Positions 56,202 through 56,423 of a stretch of DNA of 64,000 nucleotides are shown piece by piece; the first letter of the stretch is position 1; the number at the start of each line of letters is the position of its first letter. Made by a program: the position numbers and the translations under genes. The stretch lies in assembly GCF_002854065.1 (NCBI RefSeq), contig NZ_CP024147.1; one strand, given 5' to 3'. The notes under the pieces are model-generated. The model worked only from the letters and a program-made list of their open reading frames with translations, did no database searches and was not told where the DNA came from. Source of the stretch: Escherichia coli. GTDB lineage: Bacteria; Pseudomonadota; Gammaproteobacteria; Enterobacterales; Enterobacteriaceae.

Positions 56202-56236
56202 TTTCAATATTGGTGATCCATAAAACAATATTGAAA
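56202..56236. promoter_or_regulatory. CaiF operator site: 11-bp inverted repeat with 13-bp spacer
   Basis: TTTCAATATTG-13 bp-CAATATTGAAA read directly, in the divergent cai/fix control region. Confidence 0.6.
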
Positions 56237-56258
56237 ATTTCTTTTTGCTACGCCATGT

Positions 56259-56293
56259 TTTCAATATTGGTGAGGAACTTAACAATATTGAAA
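56259..56293. promoter_or_regulatory. Second CaiF operator site: same 11-13-11 inverted repeat
   Basis: TTTCAATATTG-13 bp-CAATATTGAAA read directly. Confidence 0.6.
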
Positions 56294-56423
56294 GTTGGAT
56301 TTATCTGCGTGTGACATTTTCAATATTGGTGATTAAAGTTTTATTTCCAAATTAAAGGGCGTGATATCTGTAATTAACACCACCGATATGAACGACGTTT
56401 CCTTCATGATTTCTGGAGATGCA

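Follow-up and report, generated by a model that had tools for sequence, protein, structure and literature searches.

A lone copy of the CaiF operator arm within the fixA core promoter of Escherichia coli is conserved across Enterobacterales

The control region shared by the divergent caiTABCDE and fixABCX operons, to which CaiF and CRP bind, carries two published CaiF operators and a third, exact copy of their left arm. This lone copy lies inside the fixA core promoter and is the most constant element of the control region across Enterobacterales, where full operators number anywhere from 0 to 3. Judged by sequence comparison, the lone copy is under selection and has its own conserved neighbour; it is not a decayed operator. 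Our analysis gives an even chance to the reading in which the lone copy would be a single, promoter-embedded CaiF site, through which CaiF would act in the fixA core promoter much as its homologue GrlA does elsewhere. We infer from the evidence set out below that the lone copy is read by CaiF and not by some other factor.

Results

Two published CaiF operators in the cai–fix control region

The repeats are flanked by caiT (start codon at 55950, minus strand) and fixA (ATG at 56424) (Table 1). Direct reading and a pattern search of the window, i.e., of the whole 64-kb stretch of DNA that was analysed, located exact copies of TTTCAATATTG on the plus strand at 56202, 56259, and 56318, and on the minus strand at 56226–56236 and 56283–56293, where they read as CAATATTGAAA on the plus strand. 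There are no further exact copies on either strand of the window. When one mismatch is allowed, the 11-mer has 11 matches in the window for 2.09 expected, a number reached by none of 100 shuffles. The full pattern TTTCAATATTG-N13-CAATATTGAAA occurs exactly twice, with 0 mismatches and 0.00 occurrences expected. The three left arms have a longer identical block in common, TTCAATATTGGTGA, found exactly three times in the window; the chance expectation for this 14-mer is 0.41 per 64 kb, even allowing up to two mismatches. The units of F1 and F2 are 75% identical over 51 nt.

Table 1. Features of the cai–fix control region and the caiF gene, with column identities from the alignment of 19 representatives
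Feature	Coordinates	Strand	Description	Column identity
caiF, cognate regulator	46765..47160	+	intact, 131 aa	
Probable cai -10 hexamer CATTAT	56063..56068	-	followed by conserved RRTATT (56069-56074)	
CRP site 1 TGTGATTGTTATCACA	56090..56105		perfect consensus, 0 mismatches; kept across genera	
CaiF operator F1, TTTCAATATTG-N13-CAATATTGAAA	56202..56236		centre 56219, -127 of fix start; identical in K-12	
CRP site 3 core GGTGATCCATAAAACA	56212-56227		centre of F1; 3 mismatches, read from sequence	
CaiF operator F2	56259..56293		centre 56276, -70 of fix start; identical in K-12	
F2 left arm				0.98
F2 spacer				0.57
F2 right arm				0.96
CRP site 2 core GGTGAGGAACTTAACA	56269-56284		centre of F2; 2 mismatches	
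fixA promoter -35 hexamer GTGACA	56311..56316	+	promoter scan	0.58
Lone CaiF-type element	56318..56332	+	11-mer TTTCAATATTG at 56318-56328; conserved 14-mer TTCAATATTGGTGA at 56319-56332	
Lone copy, 10-mer				0.98
Lone copy, GTGA				0.99
fixA promoter -10 hexamer TAAAGT (E. coli clade)	56334..56339	+	promoter scan	
Conserved partner block GTTTTATTT (GnTTTTATTT)	56338..56346	+	ends at the presumed fix start, ~56346	0.94
Second conserved block CGTGATATCTGTAATTAACA	56360..56379	+	fix 5' untranslated region	
Remaining DNA				0.46-0.68

This arrangement is widespread in the species. The 551 bases around the repeats have a match between caiT and fixA in 5,394 of 5,426 complete E. coli genomes, and the region is 98% identical to that of K-12 MG1655, from which F1, F2, and the third copy differ at no base. 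In the E. coli genome collection, three matches to the control region sit on records classed as plasmids, not on chromosomes.

Both full repeats have been published as CaiF operators, under the names F1 and F2. A passage of PMC12083890 quotes their sequence, 5'-TTTCAATATTG-N13-CAATATTGAAA-3', from Buchet et al. (1999, Mol Microbiol 34:562) and reports protection by CaiF (footprint or gel shift), and a passage of PMC3680233 gives the same layout, in which 13 bp separate the two arms of a perfect 11-bp inverted repeat. The initial annotation had seen two full 11-13-11 repeats at these positions and taken them for CaiF-type operators upstream of fixA; our searches agree with the former, and the exactly quoted sequence bears out the latter. 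It had also proposed a comparison with K-12, which gave a divided answer: the arrangement is identical there, and F1 and F2 are characterised, but the literature that we found neither assigns nor denies a role to the third copy. F1, F2, and the arrangement as a whole are thus already known from K-12, and there is nothing new in them.

Each of the two operators has a CRP site at its centre, which explains the GTGA that extends their left arms: it is the left arm of the embedded CRP site. This was missed by the initial annotation, as was the position of the third copy inside the fixA core promoter. The abstract of a 1998 study reportedly places CRP site 1 at -41.5 of cai and is said to describe three footprinted CRP sites and no more. 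Abstracts of the primary papers are likewise said to put the cai and fix starts 289 bp apart and CRP sites 2 and 3 at -69.5 and -126.5 of fix, and to centre F2 and F1 at -70 and -127. From such distances we take the fix start to be at ~56346 on the plus strand (K-12 coordinate 42325) and the cai start to be at ~56056 on the minus strand. If the starts are at 56346 and 56056, the centres of CRP sites 2 and 1 fall at -69.5 and -41.5, respectively. The reported positions are also mutually consistent with the sequence in the CRP cores, the operator centres, and the fixA promoter hexamers.

On the cai side, the promoter sequence ATRATGRRTATT (56063–56074) is conserved in all genera when the alignment is anchored on CRP site 1; it comprises CATTAT (minus strand), probably the cai -10 hexamer, and an adjacent TATT. 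An element resembling a half-site in the spacer of the cai promoter (56071–56081) was rejected as too weak, TATT alone being conserved. The equivalent place in Pluralibacter reads tGAATATTGG, which comes near a CaiF half-site and is too weak for a site. A search of the intergenic region for known RNA families returned none, its one match being sub-threshold and attributable to chance.

A lone left arm between the fixA promoter hexamers

The sole consensus-like promoter on the plus strand is GTGACA-17-TAAAGT (56311–56339), with a start at ~56346, and the third copy lies between its two hexamers. Relative to this start, the 11-mer covers positions -28 to -18 and the 14-mer positions -27 to -14, the centre of the element being at about -23. 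The 11 bases found 13 bp after the arm, TATTTCCAAAT (56342–56352), match CAATATTGAAA at 4 of 11 positions. The copy hence fails as a full CaiF operator and is a lone left arm, as the initial annotation had described it (56318..56328). Within the lone copy, CAATATTG forms a perfect palindrome of 8 bp. If TATTTY (56342–56347) were the -10 hexamer, the lone element would span -35 to -22, which fits the genera other than Escherichia better. A CRP site at the lone copy was considered and rejected, since GGTGATTAAAGTTTTA, read from the sequence, has 4 mismatches to TGTGA-N6-TCACA.

The left arms are spaced 57 and 59 bp apart from start to start, i.e., 5.4 and 5.6 helical turns, which puts neighbouring copies on roughly opposite faces of the helix. 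The doubt raised earlier over their helical phasing is numerically right.

The passages on this region in two secondary sources name two CaiF sites only (PMC12083890, PMC3680233). Text searches on the motif and on the CaiF half-site, in literature other than the primary papers, found no description of the third copy. In the same literature we did not find that the lone copy is constant while the full operators vary from 0 to 3; the primary authors may well have noticed the copy.

The lone copy is conserved as strongly as a proven operator

To compare control regions, we took fixA loci from one genome per species and examined the DNA between caiT and fixA in about 45 species of enterobacteria, which represent at least 12 genera. 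Column identities were computed from a MAFFT alignment of 19 representatives that was built without using the motif (Table 1). With two exceptions, the ~45 species all carry the lone copy, ~105 bp ahead of the fixA ATG. The 10-mer of the lone copy has no mismatch in 40 of 44 species, compared with 36 for the left arm of F2 and 23 for the right arm. A spacing of 59 bp between the lone copy and the left arm of F2 is kept in 38 of the 44 species, a count in which one locus (L062) was anchored on its F2 left arm and so contributes values that are not those of the lone copy.

The conservation profile over 14 nt is the same in the F2 left arm and in the lone copy, including the tolerated positions 5 and 11, which argues for one reader of both. 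Moreover, GGTGA is invariant in the lone copy, and it is invariant in the F2 left arm even where the right arm of the CRP site is degenerate. This last observation hints, on sequence grounds, that the true left-type unit would be the 14-mer. Within the partner block, T56339–41, A56343, and T56344 are invariant among the 19 representatives, as are T56362, G56363, T56365, A56366, and T56371 of the block CGTGATATCTGTAATTAACA. The latter block could be the site of another regulator; an ArcA-like site is only a guess.

The initial annotation had suggested that the third half-site might be a decayed third operator, and this did not survive the comparison. A right arm 13 bp after the lone copy is present in none of the 45 species, with 3–6 of 11 positions matching, even in Proteus; in its stead stands GnTTTTATTT, at a column identity of 0.94 versus 0.57 for the spacer of F2. 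The initial annotation had also suggested an extra low-affinity site; since the lone copy is conserved to the same degree as the arms of F2, it is a selected element and not a spare. We regard it as hardly credible that the third copy is a functionless relic, whether a decayed operator or a chance repeat. The missing right arm would fit such a relic, as would the faint likeness of CCAAATTAAAG (56347–56357, E. coli clade) to CAATATTGAAAG minus two bases, with 7 of 11 matches at a shifted offset. Yet a relic would not be expected to match the F2 arms in conservation across at least 12 genera, to keep its register and its distance to fixA, and to have a right arm in no lineage, and the 14-mer has the low chance expectation given above.

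The hexamers GTGACA and TAAAGT are conserved in the clade of Escherichia, Citrobacter, and Salmonella only, and the surroundings of the module hold no consensus-like sigma-70 promoter in Providencia, Proteus, Cedecea, and Trabulsiella. Canonical hexamers thus do not explain why the lone copy is conserved. In genera other than those of the E. coli clade, TATTTT may serve as the -10 of a promoter whose -35 region the module would overlap. The lone copy could also be core promoter DNA read by the RNA polymerase and not by CaiF, e.g., as a -35-like TTCAAT with an ancestral -10 TATTTY, its likeness to CaiF sites stemming from tandem duplication of units of 57–59 bp. TTCAAT (56319–24) and TATTTC/T (56342–47) are indeed 17 bp apart and both in conserved blocks, A56343 and T56344 of the latter do not vary, most genera other than Escherichia have TATTTT, and the identity between the F1 and F2 units suggests duplication. 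We nevertheless consider this unlikely. Promoter hexamers rarely need 14 conserved positions out of 14, and the conserved span and the tolerated positions are those of the F2 left arm, at -86 to -73, where no such contact with the polymerase is expected. In E. coli the putative -10 is TATTTC, with a C at the critical last position, and the reported start at 56346 fits TAAAGT, not TATTTC. The promoter scan also found nothing alike in Providencia, Cedecea, and Trabulsiella.

Operator number varies around a constant lone copy

The number of full operators differs between lineages. Proteus (L035/L036) has three; with the lone copy, this makes four left arms that follow a strict 59-bp period. Escherichia, Citrobacter, Salmonella, and their relatives have two, and Atlantibacter, Cedecea, Trabulsiella, and others have one, all of them keeping the lone copy. 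In Providencia (L030/L058), F1 and F2 are degenerate and the lone copy is perfect, with the 59-bp period extending over three left arms. Serratia sp. H1w (L037) has no full operator, and the lone module, 272 bp ahead of fixA, is the sole CaiF-type element that it has. Entomohabitans (L026) carries TTCAgcgacgtcGGGTGAGTTTTTATTT at the position of the lone copy. F1 is absent in several genera, as well as in E. coli 2002-3211 (L065). In the 416-bp intergenic region of this strain, the left arms of F1 and F2 have recombined, which removed exactly one 57-bp unit: the F1 left flank now runs into the F2 spacer, and a single operator remains beside the lone copy.

The regular spacing raises the question of whether the five half-sites form one periodic nucleoprotein array of CaiF and CRP (57–59 bp), with the lone copy as its last unit and with an architectural role for the distant cai promoter. 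The geometry is that of a left arm, 13 bp, a right arm, 22–24 bp, another left arm, and so on. Such an array would account for the strict 59-bp period of the left arms in Proteus and Providencia and for the fixed register with F2. It would also agree with the 1998 abstract, according to which a 50-bp segment overlapping the fix start is reportedly needed for transcription of cai some 290 bp away. We find the array unlikely, because the lone copy is kept where a genus has one operator, and also in Serratia sp. H1w, which has none, so that an extended array is not required, and because the 1998 deletion result can equally be taken as the loss of the fix promoter, acting through coupled divergent transcription.

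Within E. coli, the 36-nt core from GTGACA to the start is exact in 5,320 of 5,389 genomes (98.7%), F2 in 3,579 of 5,381 (66.5%), and the control segment in only 411 of 4,735 (8.7%). The difference between the core and the control segment is a further point against a relic. A scan of metagenomes for the 28-nt module gave 30 matches, from which no second genomic context emerged: 22 are caiT–fixA regions, with the module starting 104–107 bp before the fixA ATG, 7 are in unrelated contexts and look like chance matches, and 1 is on an odd contig, OGZJ01005625.1 (L096). The last 40 nt of this contig are the fix promoter from GTGACA on, fused to AT-rich DNA; the junction is upstream of a gene resembling argininosuccinate synthase, and F1, F2, and caiT are absent. 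It is probably a chimeric assembly.

The motif is absent from the fixA loci of Shewanella and Edaphovirga, which therefore provide no independent test. A different family of repeats lies upstream of the 62%-identical fixA of Shewanella atlantica (L041, 1952–2189), with four copies of TATTAG-N4-5-GCTAA..ATTAATATTAG.. at spacings of 43, 68, and 80 bp. Such a layout, reiterated in a similar way, may belong to a different regulator.

CaiF as the candidate reader of the lone copy

The cognate regulator is encoded by an intact gene in the window. CaiF scores 28.5 bits against the Pfam family CaiF_GrlA (cut-off 25), and its nearest solved structure is GrlA (4kt5_C). GrlA reportedly activates the LEE1 P1 promoter from the spacer separating its -35 and -10 hexamers, on a target without dyad symmetry (PMC10877973, PMC4730234, PMC3130263); the passages on this spacer site of EHEC and EPEC trace it to Islam et al. 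(2011).

On the reading that we prefer, one CaiF protomer would occupy TTCAATATTGGTGA within the fixA promoter, at -27 to -14. The complex of CaiF and CRP at F2 would stabilise this protomer through the fixed 59-bp register, and CaiF inside the core promoter would then favour a productive RNA polymerase complex and the formation of the open complex, activating in the manner of GrlA from the LEE1 P1 spacer. What the sequence shows is the position of the copy in a consensus-like promoter, its identity in K-12, and a conservation equal to that of the proven F2 arms. A lone half-site has no partner arm to support cooperative binding, which would explain why its conservation is no lower than that of the paired arms. 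Several points speak against this reading. The secondary sources name two CaiF sites only, and if the original footprints took in this DNA, they reported no protection of the lone copy. The spacer already has its optimal length, and that of LEE1 shows no real likeness to the CaiF half-site. A protein bound at -23 must share the DNA with sigma-70, and the invariant GGTGA of the lone copy is left without an explanation, as it is not part of a CRP site.

The invariant GGTGA could mean that some other protein, such as CRP on one arm or an unidentified factor, reads GGTGA-N6-TTTTATTT or the 28-nt module in full, with the CaiF-like part being secondary. The invariance of GGTGA where there is no full CRP site is compatible with this, as is the block GnTTTTATTT, which has no counterpart in F1 or F2. 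We hold it to be very unlikely, given the 4 mismatches to the CRP core and the three CRP sites that alone were reportedly footprinted in 1998. To our knowledge, the lone module resembles no other operator consensus of E. coli.

The overlap with sigma-70 could instead make the lone copy a brake, where CaiF bound in the spacer, free of effector or in excess, would compete with the RNA polymerase and so limit or time fix expression. A site centred at about -23 does overlap the footprint of the polymerase, and MerR-type proteins without their ligand repress from promoter spacers. CaiF is reported to bind DNA in the absence of carnitine (PMC5540944). We judge a brake highly improbable nonetheless: the literature knows CaiF only as an activator of both operons, the fix promoter, lone copy included, is strongly induced and is what carnitine biosensors built on CaiF use as their standard output, and neither the best conservation in the region nor sole presence in Serratia sp. 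H1w would be expected of a brake.

Comparison with known promoter-embedded activator sites

The closest comparison is with F1 and F2 of K-12 themselves. The lone copy shares their left arm along with its GTGA extension, but it lacks the right arm and a full CRP site, it is in the core promoter and not upstream of it, and its conserved neighbour, GnTTTTATTT, is a different one.

The LEE1 P1 promoter resembles that of fix in several respects. Its regulator belongs to the same Pfam family, the site falls within the spacer of the promoter that is activated and does not have the form of a dyad operator, and both -35 hexamers are (T/G)TGACA followed by TTT. The two promoters differ in that LEE1 has a suboptimal spacer of 18 bp where that of fix is 17 bp, and in the spacer sequences, TTTAATGATAATGTATTT for LEE1 and TTTTCAATATTGGTGAT for fix, which have TTYAAT alone in common. 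LEE1 also has no full operators upstream and no such CRP sites. A likeness of the LEE1 P1 spacer to the CaiF half-site was looked for by sequence comparison and discarded, there being no real similarity.

The operators of MerR (PMC4730234) are similar in placing an activator site in the promoter spacer near -23, and the lone copy has the palindrome CAATATTG. However, MerR promoters combine 19-bp spacers with a long dyad, and CaiF is not a member of the MerR family. The fixA spacer is not overlong (18–19 bp): at 17 bp it is already optimal, so that a correction of the spacer in the style of MerR or GrlA is not needed, nor is its untwisting. For lone half-sites, AraC offers a precedent. Its single half-sites araO2 and araI2 are each used by one protomer of an activator with multiple sites. 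As at fix, a lone half-site is selected beside full sites, and araI2 also overlaps the core promoter. In contrast, AraC is a two-domain protein with a flexible linker and belongs to another protein family, its half-sites are direct repeats at other distances, and CaiF is not known to form loops.

A broader evolutionary reading is a tentative possibility, which we hold with considerable doubt. The lone 14-mer might be the primary and ancestral CaiF site, where one protomer in the core promoter would switch on transcription by a mode shared with GrlA and perhaps with the whole family, and F1 and F2 would be accessory enhancers, variable in copy number (0 to 3 per genus), that arose by tandem duplication.

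The lone copy is part of every carnitine biosensor based on P_fix, so its role bears on promoter engineering. It is a candidate, amenable to mutation, for how CaiF at -70 and -127 activates fix, and also for why DNA at the fix start was reportedly needed for cai. If CaiF does read the lone copy, CaiF and GrlA would share activation within the core promoter, the first mechanistic link in their family.

State of the cai genes in this genome

A complete IS1 of 768 bp is inserted in caiT (54935–55702; insA 54990–55265, insB 55184–55687), flanked by the 9-bp target duplication GGTTCGTTA at 54926–54934 and 55703–55711. The carnitine transporter gene is thus inactive here, the control region being intact. 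A second IS1 lies in caiC (49015–49782, left end at 49015; insA 49070–49345, insB 49264–49767), and the end of a third is found at 31426–31448 on the minus strand. Three IS1 copies in 64 kb, along with a cai operon that is broken twice, make the source look like a Shigella-like lineage of E. coli or another one rich in IS1.
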